Shown here in pieces: positions 8,269 through 29,760 of a stretch of 64,000 nt of DNA. The notes below the pieces were generated by a model that made no database searches, was not told the origin of the DNA, and worked only from the letters and a program-made list of their open reading frames with translations. Position numbers and translations under genes: made by a program. The stretch is from an uncultured Gammaproteobacteria bacterium (lineage in GTDB: Bacteria; Patescibacteriota; Microgenomatia; Woykebacterales; RBG-16-39-9b), in contig CAYHXX010000001.1 of NCBI GenBank assembly GCA_964360785.1, positions 260,187 through 324,186 of the forward strand, written 5' to 3'. How positions within the stretch are numbered: position 1 is the first letter of the stretch; every line of letters begins with the position of its first letter.

Positions 8269-9156
8269 TTAGTTCGATAATTTTATTGAAGCGATAATTG
8301 TTTCTGCTGTTTTTACTTCCGATAGGTTAAAGTACTCTGTTGGACTTAGTTTTTGGTAGGGGGAATCATCGGGATAACGTCCATGAAAACGCGCGCCCTT
8401 ATAAACATCAAAGAAAACTCCGCTCAATTCACCGAATACCGTATCTTCGTATAACAGACATCCTTCCCCGTTGTCCCCCAGCTTAGGATAGTCATTAATA
8501 TGGTTCAGCTGAATTTCCTTTCTCTGAAAATTTACACCTCTGCTCCTCAAAGACCCTCCCGAAACAGACCATTCCACAACGCTAATTTTATTACCACTTT
8601 CGGTTGTAAGTCCGATTGGTTTTATGCCATATACATTTACCTTGAATACATAGTCATTATTAGTACTATCCACGTTTTCCCCACAACCGCCACCCAAATC
8701 ACCGATTTCTTCGTTATCAACAAAATTTAAGAAAAAGCCATTTGGGCTTTTGACCACTACATAACCCAAACTTGATGGTGTTTTGGCTACATTATTTATG
8801 GTCCAATTGGTTGGATACTTAAAACTCATTCCATTTGAAGCACTGTAAGTTTTCCAATTCGAAGGGATCACAAAAGAGCTTGCCTGCTTGGCAGAAGAAC
8901 TAGCTGTTTTTTCGAGTTCTTTCTTGGCTTGTTCTAGTTTTTCAGCTGGTTTTATTGCCACAATTAAAATCACAAAAAGTATTGGCAGGATAAAAAACAA
9001 TGCTCCACAGCCGATCATTAGTTTTAGAAACAACGGCATACCTTTCTTCGGAACTGTAGTTGGAACTGGCGGTTGGGTAGTTCCAGGAATGGCTGGGACC
9101 CAAACAGCTTGTTCAGTTGTTTGAGGATTTACTGGTGCTGCATTTTGAGTATCCAT
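8269..9156 (-). CDS. Hypothetical N-terminally anchored surface protein. It has a proline-rich N-terminus and a single TM helix, and is an ectodomain paralog of the TFKFL family.
   Basis: 295 aa. The N-terminal 70 aa are nearly identical to the adjacent 9169..9723 gene (EQAVWVPAxPGxTQPPVPTxxPKKGMPLFLKLMIGCG). The ectodomain begins with the motif NWKTYSASNGMSFKYPTNW, which is shared with the other family members. Confidence 0.5.
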   Translation of the reverse strand: MDTQNAAPVNPQTTEQAVWVPAIPGTTQPPVPTTVPKKGMPLFLKLMIGCGALFFILPILFVILIVAIKPAEKLEQAKKELEKTASSSAKQASSFVIPSNWKTYSASNGMSFKYPTNWTINNVAKTPSSLGYVVVKSPNGFFLNFVDNEEIGDLGGGCGENVDSTNNDYVFKVNVYGIKPIGLTTESGNKISVVEWSVSGGSLRSRGVNFQRKEIQLNHINDYPKLGDNGEGCLLYEDTVFGELSGVFFDVYKGARFHGRYPDDSPYQKLSPTEYFNLSEVKTAETIIASIKLSN

Positions 9157-9168
9157 ATATTTTCTTGA

Positions 9169-9723
9169 CTACTGGCAAGTTGTTTTGCCTTCGCCAACCG
9201 CACTAACCACTCCTACCGTTGAGTCCCAACTGATTATCTTACCGCTTTGATCAGTATAGATACAGATTTTAGTATTTGCAGAATCAGCTAAGTATGTTGT
9301 TTCGACTAAAGCTACTGAACTCTGATATTTACTACTTAGCAGGTAGTTCTTATCCCCACAACCATTTGTGGTAGAAAATATCTGTTTGGCTGGGGTACCT
9401 TTTGCTTTTTCTGCTGTTACACAGTTATTAACTGATTCTGCAACTGAACGCAATGCTGCCTGAGAGGACCTTTCTTTAGCTTCATTGATTTTTGCAGCAG
9501 GGTTGATTGCAACAATAACTATCATGATCAAAATAAAAGGCACCCCAAAAGCAGCTATACAACCGCAGCCAATCATGAGTTTCAGAAATAGGGGCATACC
9601 TTTTTTTGGCATGGCTGTTGGAACTGGCGGTTGAGTCGATCCAGGAGTGGCTGGAACCCAAACTGCTTGCTCTACTGGTTGTTGTGGCTGTACAGGAACT
9701 GGATTTGTGTTCTGCTCGTCCAT
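9169..9723 (-). CDS. Hypothetical membrane-anchored protein; tandem paralog of 8269..9156
   Basis: 184 aa. It has the same N-terminal Pro-rich segment and TM helix as the downstream gene, followed by a different C-terminal domain. Confidence 0.5.
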   Translation of the reverse strand: MDEQNTNPVPVQPQQPVEQAVWVPATPGSTQPPVPTAMPKKGMPLFLKLMIGCGCIAAFGVPFILIMIVIVAINPAAKINEAKERSSQAALRSVAESVNNCVTAEKAKGTPAKQIFSTTNGCGDKNYLLSSKYQSSVALVETTYLADSANTKICIYTDQSGKIISWDSTVGVVSAVGEGKTTCQ

Positions 9724-9750
9724 AAATTCTTAATTTATACGTCTGCTTAT

Positions 9751-10065
9751 TTATTTGGCACTAGTTGTAGAGGACTTTGTTACTGCTTTGGTTGCTAGCT
9801 TTACCGCTGCATCGGAAGCTGATTTTCTTGTCGTTGTTATTTCACTCTCCAAGGTATTGACTCTACCTTCGAGTCTTTGTAAAGCAATCCACATCAAACC
9901 CAAGATTAACATTGTTGCGGTTAAAATCATGCCTACGGCGGCGAATACTTTGGTTGGGTCAAATTGGGTACGATCGTCACTCTTGGCAAGTAGCACTGGT
10001 TTTAGTTTATCCACATCAGGATCTTGGATCAGTGGAGGAGGACTTTGGACAGCTTGTTCGGGCAT
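9751..10065 (-). CDS. Small membrane protein; an N-terminal-module-only member of the MPE(Q/E)...KVFAAVG family
   Basis: 104 aa beginning MPEQAVQ, followed by a KVFAAVGMILT TM helix and a Ser/Thr/Lys-rich tail ending ...TTSAK. It has no ectodomain. Confidence 0.4.
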   Translation of the reverse strand: MPEQAVQSPPPLIQDPDVDKLKPVLLAKSDDRTQFDPTKVFAAVGMILTATMLILGLMWIALQRLEGRVNTLESEITTTRKSASDAAVKLATKAVTKSSTTSAK

Positions 10066-16957: not shown

Positions 16958-17443
16958 TTGATAATGATTTTAATGCCTTCAGAAGACGCTGCCAATAAAG
17001 ATTCCAACCTCAAGATCATTGCATTTGTTGCTATTTTTCTCATTATTGCTCTAGTTGCAGTGCTTTTTTACTATCAAAGTTTCCAAAACGGAAACAAAAC
17101 AACAAGCAAAACCACCACTTCCAATACCAATGATTGGGTCACTTACACTAGCAAAACCCACGGATACTCGATCAGCTACCCAAAGTCCTGGCAAAAAGTG
17201 GTAGCGGCAACTTCAACTGACTCCAGTGGTCCAGAAATAATTTTGCTCAACTTGACCGACAATGAAGGTCGGGACAACGGCAAGCCAAATATCATCATCA
17301 CCGCAGGAGCCCCGGCGGATGTCTGTAGCGAAATTAAAGATCAAACTTGCAGGGAGCTAGGAAACAATGTTTTTGCCTCAATTCAGGCAAATGGCGATCA
17401 AGCCATCATTGACCAGGTTCTCAATACTTTTAAAACTAATTAA
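16958..17443 (+). CDS. Hypothetical anchored or secreted protein; a member of the TFK(F/T) ectodomain family
   Basis: 161 aa. The likely start is the internal MPSEDA at about 16973. A TM helix is followed by a Thr-rich linker (TTSKTTTSNTN), the ectodomain motif DWVTYTSKTHGYSISYPKSW and the C-terminus NTFKTN. Confidence 0.45.
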   Translation: MIMILMPSEDAANKDSNLKIIAFVAIFLIIALVAVLFYYQSFQNGNKTTSKTTTSNTNDWVTYTSKTHGYSISYPKSWQKVVAATSTDSSGPEIILLNLTDNEGRDNGKPNIIITAGAPADVCSEIKDQTCRELGNNVFASIQANGDQAIIDQVLNTFKTN

Positions 17444-17684: not shown

Positions 17685-18446
17685 ATGCTCGAGCAACCTG
17701 TCCCAAACCCACTAGCCAAAAACCCAAACATCCACACACATAAAGTCTTTGCCGCAGTTGGATTAATTCTCATTGGAGTAATCCTTGCCGTAGCTGGAAT
17801 TTGGTGGTATGTGAACAACCAATCGGAAACGACAACCTTAGAGACTGCAGATACTTCAACCAAAGTCTCAACCTCTTCAGCCAAGAAAACTGCAGAATCA
17901 GTTGAAAAAACAGTGGAGGATGAAATTGCTGAGTGGAAAACTTTTACTAATTCTAGTTTTAAATATTCTCTCAAGTATCCCGAGGGTATAAATCCTTTCT
18001 CAAATTCGCCTATGGGCGGGGATACTGCTGATGTTTCAGGAGATGTGATATTTACCAATGACCCAAAGGTTACAACTGAGACACGAGGCGTGGAGGGAAC
18101 GATTGGGAAAGATTTCTATCTGCTACAGATTTACCTGATAGATAAGAACGGAAATTCTTACTACACGGGTAAGACTTTAGCAGAAATCGCTCAAGGAGAT
18201 TACAACAAAAATAAAACTAGCGCGCAGAGTATCACAGAACTAACCCAAACCACAGTTGGGGGTAAAAGTGCGTATTCTTTTCAAAAGACCAAGGCCACTG
18301 CTTTTGATTATCTTGCCGGTGGTTGGTTGCTGACCCAAGAAACCATAAAGATACTTGAAGTCGAGAATAACGGATCGATATATTACCTGATTTATCGTCC
18401 AAACGACACAATTGAAGAAATCCTTACGACCTTCAAATTCCTCTAG
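17685..18446 (+). CDS. Hypothetical N-terminally anchored surface protein of the TFKFL family
   Basis: 253 aa with the N-terminus MLEQPVPNPLAKNPNIHTHKVFAAVGLILIG, the linker TTTLETADTSTKVSTSSAKK, an ectodomain starting EWKTFTNSSFKYSLKYPEG, and the C-terminus ILTTFKFL. Confidence 0.5.
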   Translation: MLEQPVPNPLAKNPNIHTHKVFAAVGLILIGVILAVAGIWWYVNNQSETTTLETADTSTKVSTSSAKKTAESVEKTVEDEIAEWKTFTNSSFKYSLKYPEGINPFSNSPMGGDTADVSGDVIFTNDPKVTTETRGVEGTIGKDFYLLQIYLIDKNGNSYYTGKTLAEIAQGDYNKNKTSAQSITELTQTTVGGKSAYSFQKTKATAFDYLAGGWLLTQETIKILEVENNGSIYYLIYRPNDTIEEILTTFKFL

Positions 18447-20880: not shown

Positions 20881-22083
20881 CTAGCGGTAAACTTCGTAAC
20901 GTTTGAAGGCTACTTCATCAGGGTCAACTTGTTTGCCTTCCATTATCAGTGGAATACGTTCCAGATGTTTTAGCAACGAGCCTTTGAGATAAATCAAATC
21001 ACCAGATTTGACCAAACTAGAAAGCACTCCAGCTGCTTCGAAAACATCATTTACCCAAATTACTGTCCCCCTTTTCATATTTTTCTCAGCTTCCGTAACG
21101 ATATATTTGGTCACCGGCCCAACTGCAATAAGATAATTAGGTTTTACGAGTCCAACTTCTGCACCAACCTGACGATGACCCTTCTCCTCCCATTCGCCCA
21201 GCTCCCCCATTTCCCCAATAACTGCAATCTTTCTTTTGGCGGGATATTCGTCAAGAGCCTGTAATCCAGCAATTGCAGAGGCTGGGTTGGCTCGACGAGA
21301 ATCATTGAGTATTACCGTACCTTTTGGACCCTGTTCAATACTCATGCGACCCTCCATGGGCTTCAAAGACTCTAGTCCTCGTGCGATCAACGAAATATCC
21401 ATGTTAGATAGTATCCCAACAGCTGCCGCCGCCAGACAATTTTCAACAAAGGCAGTTCCAATCAGACTCGTACGGGCTTTGATCATCTGATCTTTATAAT
21501 GAAGATTGAACTCCAGGCCAGTAGCAGTGAGTTTGATTCTATTTGCCCAAACCGAAACTCGGTTTTTGTCAAAGCCGTAGAAAAATACTTTTCCTTTACA
21601 ATCATCGCCCATTCTTCGAACTTCTGGAATTTCATAGTTCAGAACAGCAAACCCATCTTTCGGTACTGCCTTCACTAGTTTTGCTTTTTCTTTGATAATA
21701 TTCTCGAGTGACCCAAGATGTGCCTTGTCTGCATGGACTGGGGAAATACCGGTAACAACCGCAATTTTTGGCTTCGCCAAAGACAAATGTCTATTCATCT
21801 CACCAACACGATCGACTCCATATTCCAAAATTAATTTTTCTTGGTTCGTTAGCTTTAGTATTGTGATCGGAATGTTAAAAGTTGTATCAAGATTTATATC
21901 AGTAGTTAAGGCTTTGAATTTTTGCGATAGCACTGCTTCAATCGCCGCAACCGTATTGGTTTTACCATAACTGCCAGTCACACCAATCACAGTAGCTTTG
22001 CCGTGACTCTGCAACCAAAGTTTTGCCAATAATCGTCGGGAAGTGTGAAAAAAAGGACGCGCAATATTTTTAATTCTACTCAT
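20881..22083 (-). CDS. murF: UDP-N-acetylmuramoyl-tripeptide--D-alanyl-D-alanine ligase
   Basis: 400 aa Mur ligase with a GVTGSYGKT P-loop, located upstream of mraY as in canonical dcw. Confidence 0.8.
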   Translation of the reverse strand: MSRIKNIARPFFHTSRRLLAKLWLQSHGKATVIGVTGSYGKTNTVAAIEAVLSQKFKALTTDINLDTTFNIPITILKLTNQEKLILEYGVDRVGEMNRHLSLAKPKIAVVTGISPVHADKAHLGSLENIIKEKAKLVKAVPKDGFAVLNYEIPEVRRMGDDCKGKVFFYGFDKNRVSVWANRIKLTATGLEFNLHYKDQMIKARTSLIGTAFVENCLAAAAVGILSNMDISLIARGLESLKPMEGRMSIEQGPKGTVILNDSRRANPASAIAGLQALDEYPAKRKIAVIGEMGELGEWEEKGHRQVGAEVGLVKPNYLIAVGPVTKYIVTEAEKNMKRGTVIWVNDVFEAAGVLSSLVKSGDLIYLKGSLLKHLERIPLIMEGKQVDPDEVAFKRYEVYR

Positions 22084-22108
22084 GCGCGAATATTATACAC
22101 AAAAAAGT

Positions 22109-23227
22109 TCATTTGTAGAACCTGGTCACCCGACTTGCGAGGTTGACAACCACTTCATATGGGGAAGTTTGCAGTTTATCCGCAACACCTTCAACTGTGA
22201 TTTCTTCATTACCACTTTTTCCAATCAAAATCACTTCTTCACCGGCTCGAATATCTTCCGGGATATCTGTAATATCAATTGCTGCTTGGTCCATCGATAC
22301 TCGACCCGCCAGTGGTGCTCTGTGACCTTTGATCAAAACTTCACCCCAGTTATAGGGTGCCCGACGAAAACCGTCACCATAACCAACCGCCAGTGTGGCA
22401 ATACGAGAAGGATGACTAACTTTAAAGGCCCGACCGTAACCAACCGTTTCCCCAACTTGAAGTTCATGGGTTTGGACAACCTCAGTTTTGAAAGTTAGTA
22501 CTCTTTTCATTTCCGGTGAAAAAACTGATTTTGAATCCCGATTCAAACCTAGCATTGCAAGGCCCGGCCTTACCATATTGAAATGACCTTCCGGTAAATT
22601 GAAAATTCCGGCTGAGGCGGCGGCACTTTTGACTGGAATATTTATTCCTTCTTTTTCTAATTCGGCGAGAACTTTATTAAATCTTTCCAACTGAACTTTG
22701 GAAAATTCAATGTCACCATCAGCATCTGCAAAATGGGTAAAAATCCCTTCAATCTGTAAATTTGGTAGATCCTGAAGTTTTTTGACAAAGTAGAGTACTT
22801 GGTCTGGTTCCAGACCAAGCCGGTGCATACCAGTGTCGACTTTAACCCAAACCTTGGCAATTTTTTCTCTCCGTCTGGCTGCGGTAACCAGAGCTTTGGC
22901 AACGTCGAGATTTTTAACCGTGGCGGTAACATCGAAGTTAATCATGTCCTCGTAATTTTCCGCCGGGGTATAGCCCAAAATTAGAATTGGAGTTTTTATT
23001 CCGCTGCTACGCAACTCTCGCGCCTCGTAAAAAGAAGAGACGCCGAAGTAGTCAACCTTTGCCTCCTGAGCAATCTTCGCAACTCCCAACGCCCCATGAC
23101 CATAAGCATTGGCCTTGACCACAGCCATAATTTTCACACCATCACCAACGTGTTTTTTGATTACAGAAAGATTGTTTTTGATTGCGGAGGAACCAATTTC
23201 AACCCAAGCAAGACGTGGGATAGACAT
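22109..23227 (-). CDS. alr: Alanine racemase
   Basis: 372 aa with the PLP-binding motif AVVKANAYGHG. Confidence 0.88.
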   Translation of the reverse strand: MSIPRLAWVEIGSSAIKNNLSVIKKHVGDGVKIMAVVKANAYGHGALGVAKIAQEAKVDYFGVSSFYEARELRSSGIKTPILILGYTPAENYEDMINFDVTATVKNLDVAKALVTAARRREKIAKVWVKVDTGMHRLGLEPDQVLYFVKKLQDLPNLQIEGIFTHFADADGDIEFSKVQLERFNKVLAELEKEGINIPVKSAAASAGIFNLPEGHFNMVRPGLAMLGLNRDSKSVFSPEMKRVLTFKTEVVQTHELQVGETVGYGRAFKVSHPSRIATLAVGYGDGFRRAPYNWGEVLIKGHRAPLAGRVSMDQAAIDITDIPEDIRAGEEVILIGKSGNEEITVEGVADKLQTSPYEVVVNLASRVTRFYK

Positions 23228-23249
23228 TTTTCAATTATACCAGAGGAAT

Positions 23250-24050
23250 TTAGAGGAATTTGAAGGTTGTTACAATGGTGTCTAAAACTGAAGTGTCCAA
23301 ATCTTGCTGATTACCTGGAAAGGACTGTATAAGGTAAAAAACCCTTTTGTCCTTAACAGCTAGTATCTCATACTTATTTGTATTCCACTCCCCCTTCCAA
23401 GTTGATCGCATAGCGTTTTGGTGATCTAGCAGAATATAGTCTAGTACTGAAACACCCTCTTTACTAATCCTCCTATCTTCAGCAACTTCATCGAAGGTGT
23501 CATAGGATTCTAGGCTGGCGGTATCATAAGTTATACTCACATCCGTTCCGCTGAGGTAGTAATCTCCAGACACATTTGGCTCTTGGTTAAATTTATAGTC
23601 ACCACTTAATAACCTTATACCGTTTTTATACTCATTTCCAACTGTGAAGTCAGGTGGATAGCTAAAACTAAAATACATTGTTTTGTATTCTTTCCAATTT
23701 GATGAATCCAATTTTTCTGACGAAACATTTCCCTTTTTACCAAAAATTTCTGAGGTTTTATAGTTCTTGGAATTTGCTGAGGAAGTTGAGACTTTGGTTG
23801 TGGTAATTTCATCTTCGGGTATTTTGCTTCCAGACTGGTTCTCGACGTACCACCAAATACCAGCTGTTGCAACGATTGCACCGATCAGAATCAGTCCAAC
23901 TGAAGCAAAAACTTTATGTGTATATACGTTTGGATTTTTGGCTAGTGGGTTTGGTACAGGTTTATCAAGTAGAGATGGAGAGTTTGATGGTGGAATTGCA
24001 ATCGGTGTACTTGCAGATTCTTCAGGCATTAAGATAATTATAACTCGCAA
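23250..24050 (-). CDS. Hypothetical N-terminally anchored surface protein of the TFKFL family
   Basis: The likely start is the internal MPEESAST at about 24029. It has PVPNPLAKNPNVYTHKVFASVGLILIG, the linker TTTKVSTSSANS, the ectodomain motif NWKEYKTMYFSFSYPPDF and the C-terminus IVTTFKFL. Confidence 0.5.
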   Translation of the reverse strand: MRVIIILMPEESASTPIAIPPSNSPSLLDKPVPNPLAKNPNVYTHKVFASVGLILIGAIVATAGIWWYVENQSGSKIPEDEITTTKVSTSSANSKNYKTSEIFGKKGNVSSEKLDSSNWKEYKTMYFSFSYPPDFTVGNEYKNGIRLLSGDYKFNQEPNVSGDYYLSGTDVSITYDTASLESYDTFDEVAEDRRISKEGVSVLDYILLDHQNAMRSTWKGEWNTNKYEILAVKDKRVFYLIQSFPGNQQDLDTSVLDTIVTTFKFL

Positions 24051-24130
24051 GAACTACCGAAGCAAGATATAACCAGAAAGGTTATCGATTATTGTTAATA
24101 ATTGTCAATTCAAACCTGAGTGTCAGACAC

Positions 24131-24505
24131 TTAGGCGTGTTTTTCGATCCAAGAAGCGATTTTTTCGATAGTTGGTTTTGAATTCTCAACCCACAAAGCA
24201 AAATCAACGATATCCCTGTTTGTCGCGGTGAATTTTCTTTTATTTAAGATGAGAAATTCAATCATGGAAATAGTTGCTGTTCTTTTGTTACCGTCAACAA
24301 ACATGTGATTAAGCAGCAACGAGTGAACTAAAGCAGCTGCTTTTATCTCAAGGGTTGGATAAAGATCTTTACCAACAAAAGTTTGCTGAGGCCGCATTAC
24401 CGCCGACTCCAAAAGACCAAGATCACGTAAACCTTGAGATCCTCCGGTTACTTCAACTATCTCGTAGTGAATCTGGATGACGTTCTCTGGAGTTAAATAT
24501 TTCAT
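24131..24505 (-). CDS. doc: Doc (death-on-curing) Fic-fold toxin
   Basis: 124 aa with the Doc variant Fic motif HMFVDGNKRTA. It overlaps the upstream antitoxin gene by 4 nt. Confidence 0.8.
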   Translation of the reverse strand: MKYLTPENVIQIHYEIVEVTGGSQGLRDLGLLESAVMRPQQTFVGKDLYPTLEIKAAALVHSLLLNHMFVDGNKRTATISMIEFLILNKRKFTATNRDIVDFALWVENSKPTIEKIASWIEKHA

Positions 24506-24705
24506 TTCGAAGCAAGCTCTTCGAGGGCGCCGCGGTACTCTTTGATCAAGTTTTGTGTCAAGTCGTGAATTTTTGGATCGGCGTTGAAAATAGGTTCAAT
24601 TGTGAATGACAAGGAATCACCAACTTTAAGGTTTTTTGCTTTGATTTCTGATTTTGGGATTGTTACGGCAAGCGAGTTGCCGACTTTGATAACTTTTTGA
24701 ATCAT
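24502..24705 (-). CDS. AbrB/MazE-fold (SpoVT_AbrB) antitoxin partner of Doc
   Basis: 67 aa containing KVGNSLAVTIPK, a swapped-hairpin AbrB/MazE signature. It is translationally coupled to doc. Confidence 0.7.
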   Translation of the reverse strand: MIQKVIKVGNSLAVTIPKSEIKAKNLKVGDSLSFTIEPIFNADPKIHDLTQNLIKEYRGALEELASK

Positions 24706-24714
24706 GTTAGTACA

Positions 24715-24743
24715 ATGTTAGAACAAAAAGAGCGAGTTGTCAA
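24715..24743 (-). promoter_or_regulatory. Candidate promoter for the antitoxin-doc operon (TTGACA-17-TAACAT, minus strand), with GTTAG direct repeats
   Basis: The minus strand reads TTGACAactcgctctttttgttcTAACAT, followed by tgtactaac and the ATG. TGTTAG is repeated twice next to the start, which may be an operator. Confidence 0.25.
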
Positions 24744-24762
24744 ACTCTGAAATGAGAAAGTT

Positions 24763-25431
24763 TTAAAGGAATTTGAAGGTGGAAAGGATTTGATCTAGCT
24801 CTTTGGAATAATTGGTTCCAGAAGTACTTCCATCATACTCAATAAGGAAAGCATCACTTGATATCTTAATAATATAGCTCACTTTATTTTCGTTATCCTT
24901 AGTAAACTTAAGAGCGGTTTTACCATCGATAACTTTAGTACCAGATTTTGTAAAGTTTTTTTCAAGTATTACGATCTCAGAATCATAATTGCTGTTTAAT
25001 GTTGCTAAACGGAAACCAATGTGGTCATCAATGCCACAAGCTGATTTATCAGGTTTGGTTGGAAAGAACCAAACATTATCTTGCTCACAGACAGTAAAAC
25101 CCCAACTCTTAGGTAGCTTTACGGTAAAATTTTCAGTAAAATCTATACTTTGATCACTTGTAGAATATGTTCTCCAATCAGAAGGTATTTCTGAAGAAGT
25201 TCCTGGTTTTACCGGATTATCAATATTCGAACTTTTGGGAACTCCTTTTAGGAAATCTCCAAGTGGACCGCGATAAATAAAGGCCAATATCCCTCCAACA
25301 ATTATTAACGCGACTATTGCACAGAGAACTACAACTCCAGAAAGAGATTTTGGTTTGGACACATCTTGCGGAGTAGGCGTAGTATTTGTTTGTGGGTTTT
25401 CGACTGGAGCACTTGCAGGTTCTTCAGGCAT
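24763..25431 (-). CDS. Hypothetical N-terminally anchored surface protein of the TFKFL family
   Basis: 222 aa beginning MPEEPASAP, with a TM helix, the ectodomain motif DWRTYSTSDQSIDFTENFTVKLPKSW and the C-terminus ILSTFKFL. Confidence 0.5.
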   Translation of the reverse strand: MPEEPASAPVENPQTNTTPTPQDVSKPKSLSGVVVLCAIVALIIVGGILAFIYRGPLGDFLKGVPKSSNIDNPVKPGTSSEIPSDWRTYSTSDQSIDFTENFTVKLPKSWGFTVCEQDNVWFFPTKPDKSACGIDDHIGFRLATLNSNYDSEIVILEKNFTKSGTKVIDGKTALKFTKDNENKVSYIIKISSDAFLIEYDGSTSGTNYSKELDQILSTFKFL

Positions 25432-25507
25432 TTTCTTAATTATCTAGCAGTTGATATAAATTGTCAATTTAACCTGTAAACTATGGCTGAGGGTCAGGCC
25501 CTTGAAC

Positions 25508-26833
25508 TTAGATTTTCTTGACAATGTTTGCTCCAAGACTTTCAAGCCGACCTTCGAGATTTTCATAACCACGCTCAATCAGCTCGATATTTTCGATAAC
25601 ACTTTGCCCCTTGGCAACGAGTGCTGCCAAAGTTAAGGTTGCACCGGCGCGGATATCTTGCACCACGAGATTAGTTCCGTTCAACTGTGTTGGGCCAGTA
25701 ATTTTAGCAGCGTGAAAAGAGTTTTCCTTTCGATCCGCAGTATTGAAATTGTAAAATTCATCCGGATTTTCAACTTCCGGGTTAAAAAGTTCTATTTTCG
25801 CTCCCATTTTCTGAAGATCTGCAACATACCCAAAACGGTTTTCAAACACTCTTTCGTGTACAACTGACTGCCCCTCTGCTTGAGTCATCAGTGTAACCCA
25901 CAAAGCTTGCCAATCCGTCATAAAACCCGGATGGATGGCTGTTTCAACCGTAGTTGCAAGAAGCGTCCCTTTTGCAAAAAATCTTATGCCTTCTGGAAGA
26001 GTCTCATAACCACCACCGGCTGCAACCACTTTTGCTAAGAAAGCTTTCAAGTGCTCTTCATGGGCTTTCTCAACCAAAATATCCCCGCGGGTTGCAAGGG
26101 CTGCACAGGCAAAAGTAACTACATCGTTGCGGTCGGGCATAAGCTCAAAACTTGCCCCTTTCAAACTTGTAACTCCTTGGATGGTGATTTGTCGATGACC
26201 ACTACGTAGGATTTTCGCTCCCATCAGATTGAGGAAGTTGATAAGATCATTGATTTCTGGTTCCTCGGCTGCATTATTTAATACTGTGTTGCCCCGGGCA
26301 AGAGCGGCAGCCAAAATAAATGTCTCTGTTCCTGTGTGAGTATTTTTCTGAAAAGTGTATTCTGTCCCCACCAACCCGTTTGGCGCTTCCGCTTCGATAA
26401 AACCATTTTCAATTCGTATCTGTACTCTTAACGACTTTAGTGCTTCCACATGGCGATCCAGTGAGCGGGCACCGATATTATCCCCTCCTGGAAGCGGTAC
26501 ACGGGCTTTCTTGAACCTATGCAATAAAACTGGTAGAAACATCGAGGAAGCTCTAGTTTTTTGCCCAAACTCCTGCTTGATTTCGGAACCTTCCAAACCT
26601 TTTCCGCTGACAATCAATGTCTTGTTGTTTCCAACCTCCGCTGTTCCTCCCAAACTCTCAATCAACTGCTTGACTGAGATTACATCACGAATGAAACAAA
26701 TATTAGAAATAGTTGAAGGCTCATCACTCAAGAGTGCTGATAACATCAGTTTGAAAGAAGAATTTTTGGCTCCAAAAACTTTTACGCTACCTTTGAGCGG
26801 AACCCCACCTTCGACAATATATTTCACAACCAA
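25508..26833 (-). CDS. murA: UDP-N-acetylglucosamine 1-carboxyvinyltransferase
   Basis: 441 aa EPSP-synthase-like fold beginning GGVPLKGSVKVFGAKNS. Confidence 0.9.
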   Translation of the reverse strand: MVVKYIVEGGVPLKGSVKVFGAKNSSFKLMLSALLSDEPSTISNICFIRDVISVKQLIESLGGTAEVGNNKTLIVSGKGLEGSEIKQEFGQKTRASSMFLPVLLHRFKKARVPLPGGDNIGARSLDRHVEALKSLRVQIRIENGFIEAEAPNGLVGTEYTFQKNTHTGTETFILAAALARGNTVLNNAAEEPEINDLINFLNLMGAKILRSGHRQITIQGVTSLKGASFELMPDRNDVVTFACAALATRGDILVEKAHEEHLKAFLAKVVAAGGGYETLPEGIRFFAKGTLLATTVETAIHPGFMTDWQALWVTLMTQAEGQSVVHERVFENRFGYVADLQKMGAKIELFNPEVENPDEFYNFNTADRKENSFHAAKITGPTQLNGTNLVVQDIRAGATLTLAALVAKGQSVIENIELIERGYENLEGRLESLGANIVKKI

Positions 26834-27729: not shown

Positions 27730-29021
27730 TAGTTTGTTTTTAATTTTTCCAGCAAGATTCCAGAAAGTTTGTAAATATCCCCGGCTCCCATGTTGATTAC
27801 AATAGCACCATCATGTAGATTCTCAATTAAATAGTTTGCCGTGCTTTCAAAATCTCCAATGTAGCGAACTGAATCTTTCGAGACTTGCTCGACTACATCC
27901 CGACTGGAGATGTTTTCTTTATTTTCCTGTCTGGCGGCAAAAATATCTACTAGAATAATTTGATCAACTGGAAGGTTATTAAAAGTCTCAACAAAATCTT
28001 TTTCTAAATACTTCGTTCGGGAATACATGTGAGGCTGGTATACCAACCAAATTCTTTGATCTGGAAATTTTTCACGAGCAGCCTGTGCAGTCAACCTGAC
28101 CGCAGTCGGATGGTGTCCGTAATCATCAAAAACTTTTATTCCTTTTTCTTCACCTCTAAATTCAAACCGACGTCCAACTCCTCTGAAAGCTTCAAGTGAG
28201 GCTCTTGCAGGCTGCTCAGCAACTCCCAGCAATCTCGCAACCTCGAAGGCAAGGGTGGCGTTTTCTTGATTGAACTCCCCAATTAGCTTCAGGTTAAAAT
28301 TTCTAATTTCAAAATCCTTCCCAAGTTTGAGTTGGTCAGTTCTTTCTTTATCCAGCTCGACATTCTTGCCAATCACTACTTTTCCGTGAGGTTGAGTATT
28401 ATTTATGAATTGCGAGAAGCTTCTTCTTATCTGATCCAAATCCTTGAAATATTCTGGATGATCCATCTCAACTGCGGTTATGACACTAATATAAGGTGAG
28501 TAAAGTAAGAATTTCTCTTGATACTCATCAGCTTCAAGAACAAAATATGCACTCTTACCAATTCGATAATTTCTTCCCCAGTCACTTACAAGCGCACCAA
28601 CCAGTACGCTTGGATCAAAAGCTGCGTCTTCGAGAATTTTACCGATCATGGCAGTGGTAGTGGACTTACCATGGGTACCGGAAACTGCGATAACCTTTTT
28701 ATCCTTGAGAAGGTAGTCGGCGAGAAACTTTTCGCCGATAACAACTGGAATATTTCTTTTATTAGCCTCAGCAATTTCTGAATTTCTTGGGTCTAGGCTC
28801 TCAATTGCGGGGGAAACAACCACTATCTCAATACCTTCCAAATGCTTGGGATCGTGGTTTGAGAGTATTTCGACACTTTCTTTCTTTAAAGATGCTAGAA
28901 ATGGAGAAGTAGTATCTAAATCACAACCAGAGATCTGAAACCCAGCATTCTTTGCAAAAGCTGCAACAGCAGAAATTCCTGCGCCACCAATACCGACAAA
29001 ATGGATTTTTTTAGGTTCCAT
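27729..29021 (-). CDS. murC: UDP-N-acetylmuramate--L-alanine ligase
   Basis: 430 aa with the N-terminal motif IHFVGIGGAGISAVA and a GTHGKSTTT P-loop. Confidence 0.85.
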   Translation of the reverse strand: MEPKKIHFVGIGGAGISAVAAFAKNAGFQISGCDLDTTSPFLASLKKESVEILSNHDPKHLEGIEIVVVSPAIESLDPRNSEIAEANKRNIPVVIGEKFLADYLLKDKKVIAVSGTHGKSTTTAMIGKILEDAAFDPSVLVGALVSDWGRNYRIGKSAYFVLEADEYQEKFLLYSPYISVITAVEMDHPEYFKDLDQIRRSFSQFINNTQPHGKVVIGKNVELDKERTDQLKLGKDFEIRNFNLKLIGEFNQENATLAFEVARLLGVAEQPARASLEAFRGVGRRFEFRGEEKGIKVFDDYGHHPTAVRLTAQAAREKFPDQRIWLVYQPHMYSRTKYLEKDFVETFNNLPVDQIILVDIFAARQENKENISSRDVVEQVSKDSVRYIGDFESTANYLIENLHDGAIVINMGAGDIYKLSGILLEKLKTN

Positions 29022-29760
29022 TTGAACGCTCTTTCATTAGTTTGTTTGCCTTTTGGAGTTCTTCTGGGGTATTAACTCCCACCCACTCATTGTTTGGAAC
29101 TGCAAAACCTAGAACTTTTTCGTTTTGATCAAATGCAGCTTTGATCAGATCTGGCATTATGATTTCACCCTTACCAACTTTGCTGGGCTTCAGTTTTGAA
29201 TAATTAGCATTAAACCAGTCTCTTTCGACAAAGTAAGCAGCAGCATTTACTTCATTGATTTTCTTCTGTTCCTCGGTTGCTGCTTCCTTCTCGACTACGG
29301 CCACAACTTCTCCTCTTTCATCTCGGAGCACTCTGCCAAAAGCACCTGGGTCTTCTAAACAAACGGTTGTGAAGGAAATCTTGTAGTTGCCAGAGGCAGT
29401 AATAAATCTTTCTAAAGTTTCCTTTTTATAAAAAGCACTATCATCTCCTTGAATAATTAATATGTGTGTAAAACCTGGATCAACTTTTTCCTCACCCATC
29501 TTTGCAGCATGTGCTGTTCCCAAGCGGGGTTCTTGCAAGGCAAACTTAACTTTATCCGCAAAAATCTCCTTGATCAGTTCTGCTTTGTAGCCAACTACCA
29601 TAACTTGCTCGTTTATGTTAAGTGAGTCCAACAACTCTACTGTATAAGAAATCATTGGTTTTCCCAATATTTCATAAAGCACCTTTGGTTTCTCAGAGGG
29701 TTGGCCTGCATTCAGTCGTGTTCCTGACCCAGCGGCTAAAATTATGGCGGCAATTCTCAT
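29011..29760 (-). CDS. Sugar-1-phosphate nucleotidyltransferase; GlmU-like uridyltransferase domain only
   Basis: 249 aa with LAAGSGTRL...KVL..LGKPM...QEPRLGTAHA, matching the GlmU N-terminal pyrophosphorylase domain. It lacks the left-handed beta-helix acetyltransferase domain. Confidence 0.6.
   Translation of the reverse strand: MRIAAIILAAGSGTRLNAGQPSEKPKVLYEILGKPMISYTVELLDSLNINEQVMVVGYKAELIKEIFADKVKFALQEPRLGTAHAAKMGEEKVDPGFTHILIIQGDDSAFYKKETLERFITASGNYKISFTTVCLEDPGAFGRVLRDERGEVVAVVEKEAATEEQKKINEVNAAAYFVERDWFNANYSKLKPSKVGKGEIIMPDLIKAAFDQNEKVLGFAVPNNEWVGVNTPEELQKANKLMKERSNGT

Follow-up and report, generated by a model that had tools for sequence, protein, structure and literature searches.

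A probable TasA-TasB-type (MazE-Doc) toxin-antitoxin cassette between murA and alr in the dcw cluster of a Patescibacteria genome

The window, a stretch of 64,000 nucleotides (contig CAYHXX010000001.1, positions 260,187 to 324,186), carries two small overlapping genes between murA and alr, flanked on each side by a gene for a membrane-anchored protein (parB upstream, parA downstream). We consider it highly probable that the pair forms a chromosomal type II toxin-antitoxin (TA) cassette, intact and maintained by selection, of the MazE(AbrB)-Doc composite, or TasA-TasB, type. This family (mazE-doc) was described in 2006, first on the Bacillus thuringiensis plasmid pGI1 (PMC1626090); we place the window pair in it, and not among the classical Phd/YefM-Doc systems, because the toxin has the TasB signature and the MazE-type antitoxin has the TasA conservation pattern. 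An earlier reading made from the letters alone (the sequence-only reading) had described both open reading frames (ORFs) with a 4-nt overlap, inside the peptidoglycan-precursor gene cluster; the ORFs were confirmed at the positions given, on the minus strand, with 4 nt in common (ATGA), and domain matches agree with the placement between alr and murA. Both TA proteins are identical in three independently assembled contigs (Hainich H52 groundwater, 0.1-µm filter fraction). The cassette and the genes bounding its interval are as follows.

24131-24505, minus strand: doc toxin gene, 124 aa, predicted Fic-fold kinase-type toxin (profile match, motif and structural model)
24502-24705, minus strand: antitoxin gene, 67 aa, MazE/AbrB type (PF04014 match; ATGA overlap with doc)
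24706-24724, minus strand: operator-like 19-bp imperfect palindrome, GTTCTAACATTGTACTAAC, which overlaps the -10 box and abuts the start codon
24715-24743, minus strand: sigma-70-type promoter of the TA pair (TTGACA, 17 nt, TAACAT), with 10/12 consensus positions in the promoter scan
24115-24135, no strand assigned: short hairpin over the doc stop codon from a scan for terminator-like structures, a weak terminator at best
25508-26833, minus strand: murA (PF00275, 236 bits), the upstream edge of the variable interval
22109-23227, minus strand: alr (Ala_racemase_N and Ala_racemase_C domains), the downstream edge of the variable interval

The toxin, the antitoxin and their control region

The toxin matches Pfam Fic/DOC (PF02661) at 66.8 bits (cut-off 24) and the NCBIfam model TIGR01550 (DOC_P1) at 57.7 bits (cut-off 38.65), and the PHROG family annotated as "Doc-like toxin" also matches it (E=8e-35). 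Solved Doc chains in the PDB match the window sequence with E values of 4e-12 to 1e-6; the best of them is 9vzc (E=4e-12, Doc residues 3-116), and Doc of bacteriophage P1 (3k33) matches at E=7e-8. The catalytic Fic motif reported from the letters alone, which careful alignment might have taken away, proved to be intact: HMFVDGNKRTA (H67-M-F69-V-D71-G-N73-K74-R75-T-A) aligns column for column with HIFNDANKRTA of P1 Doc, and none of the residues H67, F69, D71, N73, K74, R75, and T76 varies in an alignment of 24 sequences (P1 Doc included) or in one of 32 sequences. The TasB signature H(x)5NKR(x)8F(x)3N is present at exact spacing (H67, N73-K74-R75, F84, and N88); N88 does not vary in either alignment, and F84 does not vary among the 24 sequences and is conserved to at least 90% among the 32.

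The Doc consensus is HxFx(D/N)(A/G)NKR, in which a Lys rather than a Gly at position 8 indicates a kinase rather than an AMP-transferase (PMC4177925); the window motif fits the kinase-type consensus, with Lys at position 8. AlphaFold2 predicted a structure with six helices (predicted local distance difference test score, pLDDT, 94.3), and the top five Foldseek matches to this model are all P1 Doc chains (TM-score 0.86-0.88, root-mean-square deviation 2.1-2.3 Å). The model therefore has the six-helix Doc core, whereas AMPylating Fic proteins have eight helices. By analogy with characterized members of the family, the window Doc would phosphorylate EF-Tu and so arrest translation; the organism's EF-Tu gene lies outside the window.

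The antitoxin matches PF04014 (MazE_antitoxin) at 28.9 bits (cut-off 24.7), and the Pfam scan gave no PF02604 (Phd/YefM) match for it. Its GNS motif (G9-N10-S11) lies in the N-terminal MazE/AbrB/SpoVT-type DNA-binding domain. Based on an alignment of 20 distinct homologues, an N-terminal segment, GNS..AV.IP, is common to all, the last ~24 residues (IH.LTQ.LI..YRpALEELASK) are even more conserved, and the middle is variable; the same pattern has been reported for TasA antitoxins (PMC1626090). The conserved C-terminal segment is presumed, by analogy, to neutralise Doc.

The palindrome upstream of the antitoxin gene consists of two GTTNTAAC-type half-sites 11 bp apart, and it occurs once in the window, with 0 matches expected from shuffled sequences. 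The promoter/palindrome block, or a variant differing by one or two bases, is present in 20/20 distinct upstream regions of homologous cassettes, which themselves lie in unrelated contexts. In these regions the TTGAC box is usually at -38 from the ATG (about -38 to -41) and the palindrome touches the start codon in most, three having a 17-23-nt leader instead. Because the -10 box of the window pair ends 9 nt upstream of the antitoxin ATG and there is no Shine-Dalgarno sequence, the TA mRNA is probably leaderless or nearly so. The palindrome is a candidate operator, which the antitoxin may bind for autorepression. When cassettes from different contexts are compared, similarity does not extend beyond the -35 box on one side or the Doc stop codon on the other, which sets the conserved unit at about 0.61 kb (24131-24743). 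A strong terminator after doc was considered and rejected, as the RNA fold of the hairpin (-10.2 kcal/mol) is not significant against shuffles (z = -0.84); because the hairpin is no better than shuffled sequence, read-through into parA and alr is plausible.

The murA-alr interval in relatives and the wider distribution of Doc

Five relatives were recovered via Alr, one of which (L008) is cut within alr and is uninformative. In loci L005, L006, and L007 (Alr 59-62% identical to that of the window), alr directly follows murA, and no Doc or antitoxin was detectable in the 14-21 kb examined of each. The TA pair does occur at the same site in L004 (Alr 87%), in its near-twin L089, and in L088 (Doc 90-91% identical), with differing cargo. 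The order in the window is murA, paralog, TA, paralog, alr; in L004 it is murA, a 96-aa coiled-coil ORF, paralog, TA, paralog, a PhdYefM-ParE pair, alr; and in L088 it is murA, TA, one paralog, alr. The PhdYefM-ParE pair (L004 positions 9446-9978; PhdYefM antitoxin 53.7 bits to PF02604, ParE toxin 24.9 bits) is a second type II TA pair, located directly before alr, and is not present in the window. Because the MazE-Doc pair was not found in L005-L007 and is present with different cargo in the closer three species, the murA-alr interval is supported as a lineage-specific variable spot.

These comparisons agree with the sequence-only reading in describing the site as an insertion hotspot, given that no two of the three species have the same cargo and that L004 adds a second TA pair, and they answer its question of universality, as the module at murA-alr was found only in a close clade (the window, L004/L089, and L088) and not in L005-L007. 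The same reading had treated the insertion as recent, and this holds only in part: the pair is lineage-restricted at murA-alr, but it is common to species with MurA about 71% identical and has since recombined. The pair was already in place before three species with MurA proteins only 71-73% identical diverged, and so did not arrive very recently.

Between the window and L004, Doc has 91% aa identity and the antitoxin 88%, whereas every housekeeping neighbour is lower (62-87%); the flanking paralogs are 35-40% identical. In this comparison the ratio of nonsynonymous to synonymous change (dN/dS) is 0.04 for doc and 0.20 for the antitoxin gene, and therefore both TA genes are under purifying selection. 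The proportion of synonymous differences (pS) between the window and L004 is 0.26 ± 0.07 for the antitoxin gene, an estimate from 66 codons only, 0.55 for doc, and 0.73-0.81 for murA, murB, and murF, with murA and murB at 0.74-0.81; between L004 and L088 it is 0.56 for the antitoxin gene and 0.26-0.46 for murA and murB. By the antitoxin gene, L004 falls with the window, but by murA, murB, and doc it falls with L088, and this incongruence points to recombination within or around the cassette after its acquisition. Elsewhere in the cluster, Alr is ~87-89% identical in all three pairs (window 22109-23227, L004 10001-11119, and L088 6274-7392), whereas for MurA and MurB the identity is 92-94% in the L004-L088 pair and 71-73% in either pair that includes the window. 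Such mosaic divergence suggests frequent recombination in this part of the cluster.

Beyond the murA-alr site, a word-indexed search found 4654 Doc relatives, of which the best 120 share 60-93% identity with the window protein. Named sources among these best 120 are Curtissbacteria, Woykebacteria, Magasanikbacteria, Saccharimonadia, "Patescibacteria group," and two metagenome-assembled genomes (MAGs) labelled Nanoarchaeia. In Curtiss-, Woyke-, and Magasanikbacteria and Saccharimonadia, Doc proteins 75-93% identical to that of the window are encoded in unrelated contexts. Genes for Doc relatives lie beside genes for methionyl-tRNA synthetase (MetRS) and the class A penicillin-binding protein PBP1A (L085, L087, L097, and L100), with DUF4260 and ABC transporter genes (L084), with MazG-like and BipA genes (L086 and L096), and in various others. 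MraY and MurA are only 55-72% identical among the window's own relatives, whereas Doc is 75-80% identical across distant lineages, a contrast that points to either horizontal spread among bacteria of the Candidate Phyla Radiation (CPR) or unusually strong constraint on Doc. The Nanoarchaeia-labelled homologues (P0083 and P0115, 60-76% identical, NCBI label "Candidatus Nanoarchaeia archaeon") reflect either misbinned CPR contigs or CPR-DPANN transfer.

Close relatives of the window bear Patescibacteria labels, and a reduced-genome CPR setting, among ultra-small groundwater bacteria, is reasonable for it; the assignment to CPR is based on these labels, on the 0.1-µm groundwater fraction, and on the named Doc homologues. 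The general expectation on record is that streamlined genomes are without such systems (PMC12455944), and other TA types have been noted in CPR (PMC8080830). The sequence-only reading had called a TA pair in such a genome unexpected, a claim that is weak given the abundance of this Doc subfamily in CPR genomes.

The dcw (division and cell wall) cluster of the window lies on the minus strand in the order mraZ, rsmH, an ftsI-like penicillin-binding protein gene, a Mur ligase gene, an NTP-transferase gene, murC, murB, and murA, followed by the paralog-antitoxin-doc-paralog block and then alr, murF, mraY, murD, ftsW, murG, ftsA, and ftsZ. The NTP_transferase-family gene (82 bits; 29011-29760, minus strand) lies between the Mur ligase gene and murC, and L088 is alike in this respect. 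A ddl gene, for D-Ala-D-Ala ligase, stands between alr and murF in the relatives with ~60% Alr identity (L005 11119-12147, L006 4394-5503, and L007 11106-12209). In the window the alr-murF gap (within 20881-23227) is 25 nt, and ddl is nowhere in the 64 kb; it was also not found in the examined stretches of L004, L008, and L088, and has been either relocated or lost in the window's clade. Between murF and mraY, L088 has two small ORFs (8688-9500; 134 and 125 aa, no Pfam match) where the window has a gap of 27 nt, which makes this another variable spot in the same cluster when the two are compared. L004 (CAYIWY010000003.1) and L005 (CAZXPY010000001.1) were deposited as "uncultured Gammaproteobacteria bacterium" MAGs, and they have a CPR-type dcw cluster in common with the window; the Gammaproteobacteria label that they carry was probably assigned in error. 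Apart from the CPR relatives, most of the nearest Alr homologues are from Gammaproteobacteria, with 31-38% identity.

PsbP-like flanking genes, mobility and alternative readings

The remaining features of the interval are the two flanking genes and the repeats that bracket the TA pair.

24763-25431, minus strand: parB, upstream paralog, 222 aa, PsbP-like with a transmembrane anchor (hidden Markov model, HMM, of the local family, E=1e-40)
25439-25467: promoter of parB, scan score 11/12
23250-24029, minus strand: parA, downstream paralog, 259 aa, PsbP-like with a transmembrane anchor (family HMM, E=2e-57)
23983-24041 and 25385-25443, no strand assigned: direct repeat D1, 59 nt, 75% identity, at the 5' ends of the paralog genes
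24092-24113 and 25451-25472: direct repeat D7, from the repeat search, bracketing the TA pair with D1 and D10
23249-23267 and 24762-24780: direct repeat D10, from the repeat search, bracketing the TA pair with D1 and D7

The sequence-only reading described the TA pair as flanked on both sides by paralogs, and this is true paralogy: parA and parB align with 27% identity (E=3e-7), and both proteins have an N-terminal MPEE..AS.P, one transmembrane helix, a Ser/Thr-rich linker, and a C-terminal TFKFL. The flanking genes can reasonably be assigned to a putative surface family. The parA frame is open to a TTG at 24050; the ATG at 24029 gives the 259-aa protein called in L001 and is most likely the start. 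Against Pfam PsbP_2 (PF18933, cut-off 27 bits), ParA scores 25 bits and ParB has no match, and a further paralog in the window (8269-9156, minus strand) scores 34.8 bits, above the cut-off. The local HMM joins to the family this gene and two others in the window (17685-18446 and 16958-17443, both plus strand). These proteins are fast-evolving, with 35-42% identity where MurA has 71%; a search with ParB found only 2 distant relatives among 5.8 billion proteins, and its AlphaFold2 model, built on a 7-sequence alignment, is unusable (pLDDT 49). Across relatives, PsbP-like genes, many ending in TFKFL, occur at differing intergenic positions of the dcw cluster, and they occur also in clusters without the TA pair (L006 1152-1859 and L007 7847-8524).

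Insertion of the cassette by a transposon- or integron-type element was considered and rejected, as there are no inverted repeats, target-site duplication, or recombinase at the borders. The flanking repeats that were sought turned out to be only the termini of the paralog genes rather than those of a transposon; D1, D7, and D10 correspond to the conserved 5' ends, promoters, and 3' ends of these genes. No recombinase gene was found among the neighbours, and the window has no tRNA gene or Rfam feature. No phage or plasmid vector was identified either: no relative was found on IMG/VR viral contigs, and in the phage and plasmid collections searched the best phage Doc match is 42% identical and the best plasmid Doc match 46%. 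Composition is not diagnostic: the G+C content of the interval is only slightly lower, at 0.365 compared with ~0.41-0.43, and gene values are 0.39-0.40 compared with 0.42-0.44.

Several points weigh against a functional, acquired TasA-TasB cassette. The antitoxin scores 43.9 bits (E=2e-11, residues 4-66 to model positions 2-74) against TIGR02609 "doc_partner," for which the cut-off is 55.9, and its matches to solved MazE/PemI structures are insignificant (E=0.34-0.39). The small number of codons behind the antitoxin pS value and the failure to find mobility machinery, a target-site duplication, or a vector belong here as well, and we infer toxicity, neutralisation, the EF-Tu target, and operator binding all by homology.

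With these points in mind, a TasA-TasB cassette in this interval would work and have arisen as follows. Doc, as a Fic-fold kinase, would phosphorylate EF-Tu and arrest translation, as described for its family (PMC4177925, PMC1626090). The conserved C-terminal segment of the antitoxin would block Doc, and its N-terminal AbrB-type dimer would bind the 19-bp palindrome over the -10 box and start site, repressing the pair's own near-leaderless transcript; loss of the labile antitoxin would then free Doc. Acquisition would date to the ancestor of a genus-level clade of Patescibacteria, where the cassette would have been inserted between murA and alr next to PsbP-like genes already there, and it would since have persisted and recombined, while the same cassette would circulate widely among CPR lineages. 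Its role is most likely that of a selfish addiction module, and a role in stress-induced or phage-induced arrest is possible. The sequence-only reading suggested that the module may stabilise the locus; the sole concrete form this could take is speculative, namely that unequal recombination between the direct-repeat paralogs would remove the TA pair along with the DNA between them, and such a deletion would be penalised.

The position of the cassette beside PsbP-like genes is not confined to the window. Among 19 distinct loci informative on both sides, 10 have a PsbP-like gene ≤400 bp from the Doc pair (10/13 when Doc is at least 75% identical), compared with 6/178 (3.4%) for the other genes of the same loci; these loci are not phylogenetically independent, and they amount to about four independent contexts with such a gene and three without. 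Doc loci beside PsbP-like genes are L085, L087, L090, L097, L100, L101, L104, L121, L125, L126, and L129; L101 repeats the paralog-TA-paralog layout, and the MetRS-PBP1A locus has either PsbP-TA or TA-PsbP order. Co-transfer of a PsbP-like gene with the TA pair was considered and is unsupported, as the adjacent paralogs elsewhere are far more divergent than paralogs of the same genome. The simplest explanation is that the two types of accessory gene accumulate at the same small set of permissive sites, and a functional link between them is possible. A bolder reading, which we regard as unlikely, is that the ~0.61-kb MazE-Doc cassette is a CPR-specific element that spreads horizontally without recognisable mobility genes and preferentially settles, or is retained, by hypervariable PsbP-like envelope genes, either shielding direct-repeat-flanked surface-protein islands from deletion or forming an envelope-linked stress- or phage-response unit.

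The same adjacency could be read as defence. The pair would then be an anti-phage or abortive-infection module that guards, or is triggered via, hypervariable PsbP-like envelope proteins, which may serve as phage receptors or in host contact, with the murA-alr interval as a miniature island of defence and variability. The excess of PsbP-like neighbours over background, the extremely fast evolution of the paralogs, the second TA pair stacked in the L004 interval, and partial Doc matches to candidate PADLOC systems are all consistent with this; however, the non-independence of the loci reduces the excess to about four contexts with and three without, and the PADLOC matches span only the generic Fic core of much longer proteins. 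Moreover, the PsbP-like neighbours are specific to each lineage, in contrast to Doc (76-80% identical), with no sign of co-transfer, PsbP-like genes occur in the dcw clusters of L006 and L007 without the TA pair, and no recognised defence genes are nearby. On balance, we find a dedicated defence module quite improbable.

A domesticated regulator of cell-wall synthesis seems very unlikely. Here the TA promoter would read into parA-alr-murF-mraY-murD, or arrest by Doc would be tied to the supply of peptidoglycan precursors. The pair and the dcw cluster run in the same direction, and the hairpin after doc leaves read-through plausible, but parA carries its own TTGACA promoter. Likewise, the murA-alr position is kept in three species, whereas the pair is not in the same cluster of L005-L007 and is elsewhere beside unrelated genes (ABC transporter, MazG/BipA, and others). 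The second, unrelated context that adjoins a class A PBP gene (L085, L087, and L097) would fit a link to the cell wall, but the TA and PBP1A genes are convergent where they are adjacent. Finally, that the pair is an inactive remnant, or an AMPylating Fic enzyme instead of a Doc kinase toxin, is almost certainly wrong: only the general fact that many chromosomal TA pairs decay speaks for a remnant, whereas both ORFs are intact and identical in three assemblies with a doc dN/dS of 0.04, and the invariant motif residues with Lys rather than Gly at position 8 (PMC4177925) and the predicted six-helix Doc core, not an eight-helix Fic core, speak against AMPylation.

Comparison with known systems

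An intact TasA-TasB-type cassette at this site means that streamlined Patescibacteria genomes tolerate and conserve a classical TA pair, under strong purifying selection, in their most tightly packed essential gene cluster. As one Doc cassette is common to very different CPR lineages (75-93% identity), it would be a convenient marker of gene flow among CPR, and the toxin, antitoxin, and operator are a candidate handle for genetics in these hard-to-cultivate bacteria. The expected mechanism is textbook Doc biology and would be of little surprise to a specialist; the CPR-wide conservation of a near-leaderless cassette and the recurrent PsbP-like neighbourhood are modestly interesting additions.

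Chromosomal TA pairs in hotspots and islands offer a comparison for the site, as such small autonomous cassettes likewise gather in a few permissive intergenic spots. Unlike the usual hotspots, the one in the window is inside the tightly packed dcw cluster of a streamlined CPR genome, and its borders are direct-repeat paralog genes, not tRNA genes, integrases, or insertion sequence elements.

Phd-Doc of bacteriophage P1 (PDB 3k33, 3dd7, and 3kh2) has the same toxin fold, based on the model (TM-score 0.86-0.88), and the same catalytic motif, and presumably the same mechanism, with EF-Tu phosphorylation, neutralisation by a C-terminal antitoxin helix, and autoregulation. The two systems differ in that the window antitoxin is of the MazE/AbrB type, not the Phd/YefM fold, the toxins are only 24% identical, and the window pair is chromosomal whereas the P1 pair is on a plasmid prophage. 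The best solved match, PDB 9vzc ("Death-on-curing family protein"), has a variant motif, F-Y-N-A-NKR.

The closest likeness is to TasA-TasB, in which a small MazE/AbrB-type antitoxin with a GNS motif and a conserved C-terminus is paired, through a stop/start overlap, with a Doc toxin bearing H(x)5NKR(x)8F(x)3N; members of this family are mostly chromosomal, like the window pair. Relative to the described family, the window pair belongs to a tight CPR-specific subclade, with ≤46% identity to plasmid-borne and ≤42% to phage-borne Doc in the collections searched. It also has a conserved promoter and a palindrome abutting the ATG, with a predicted near-leaderless transcript, and it lies within a dcw cluster, its cassette being recurrently located beside genes for PsbP-like membrane proteins. 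With these particulars, the window pair is an ordinary member of the already known TasAB/MazE-Doc family of type II TA systems.

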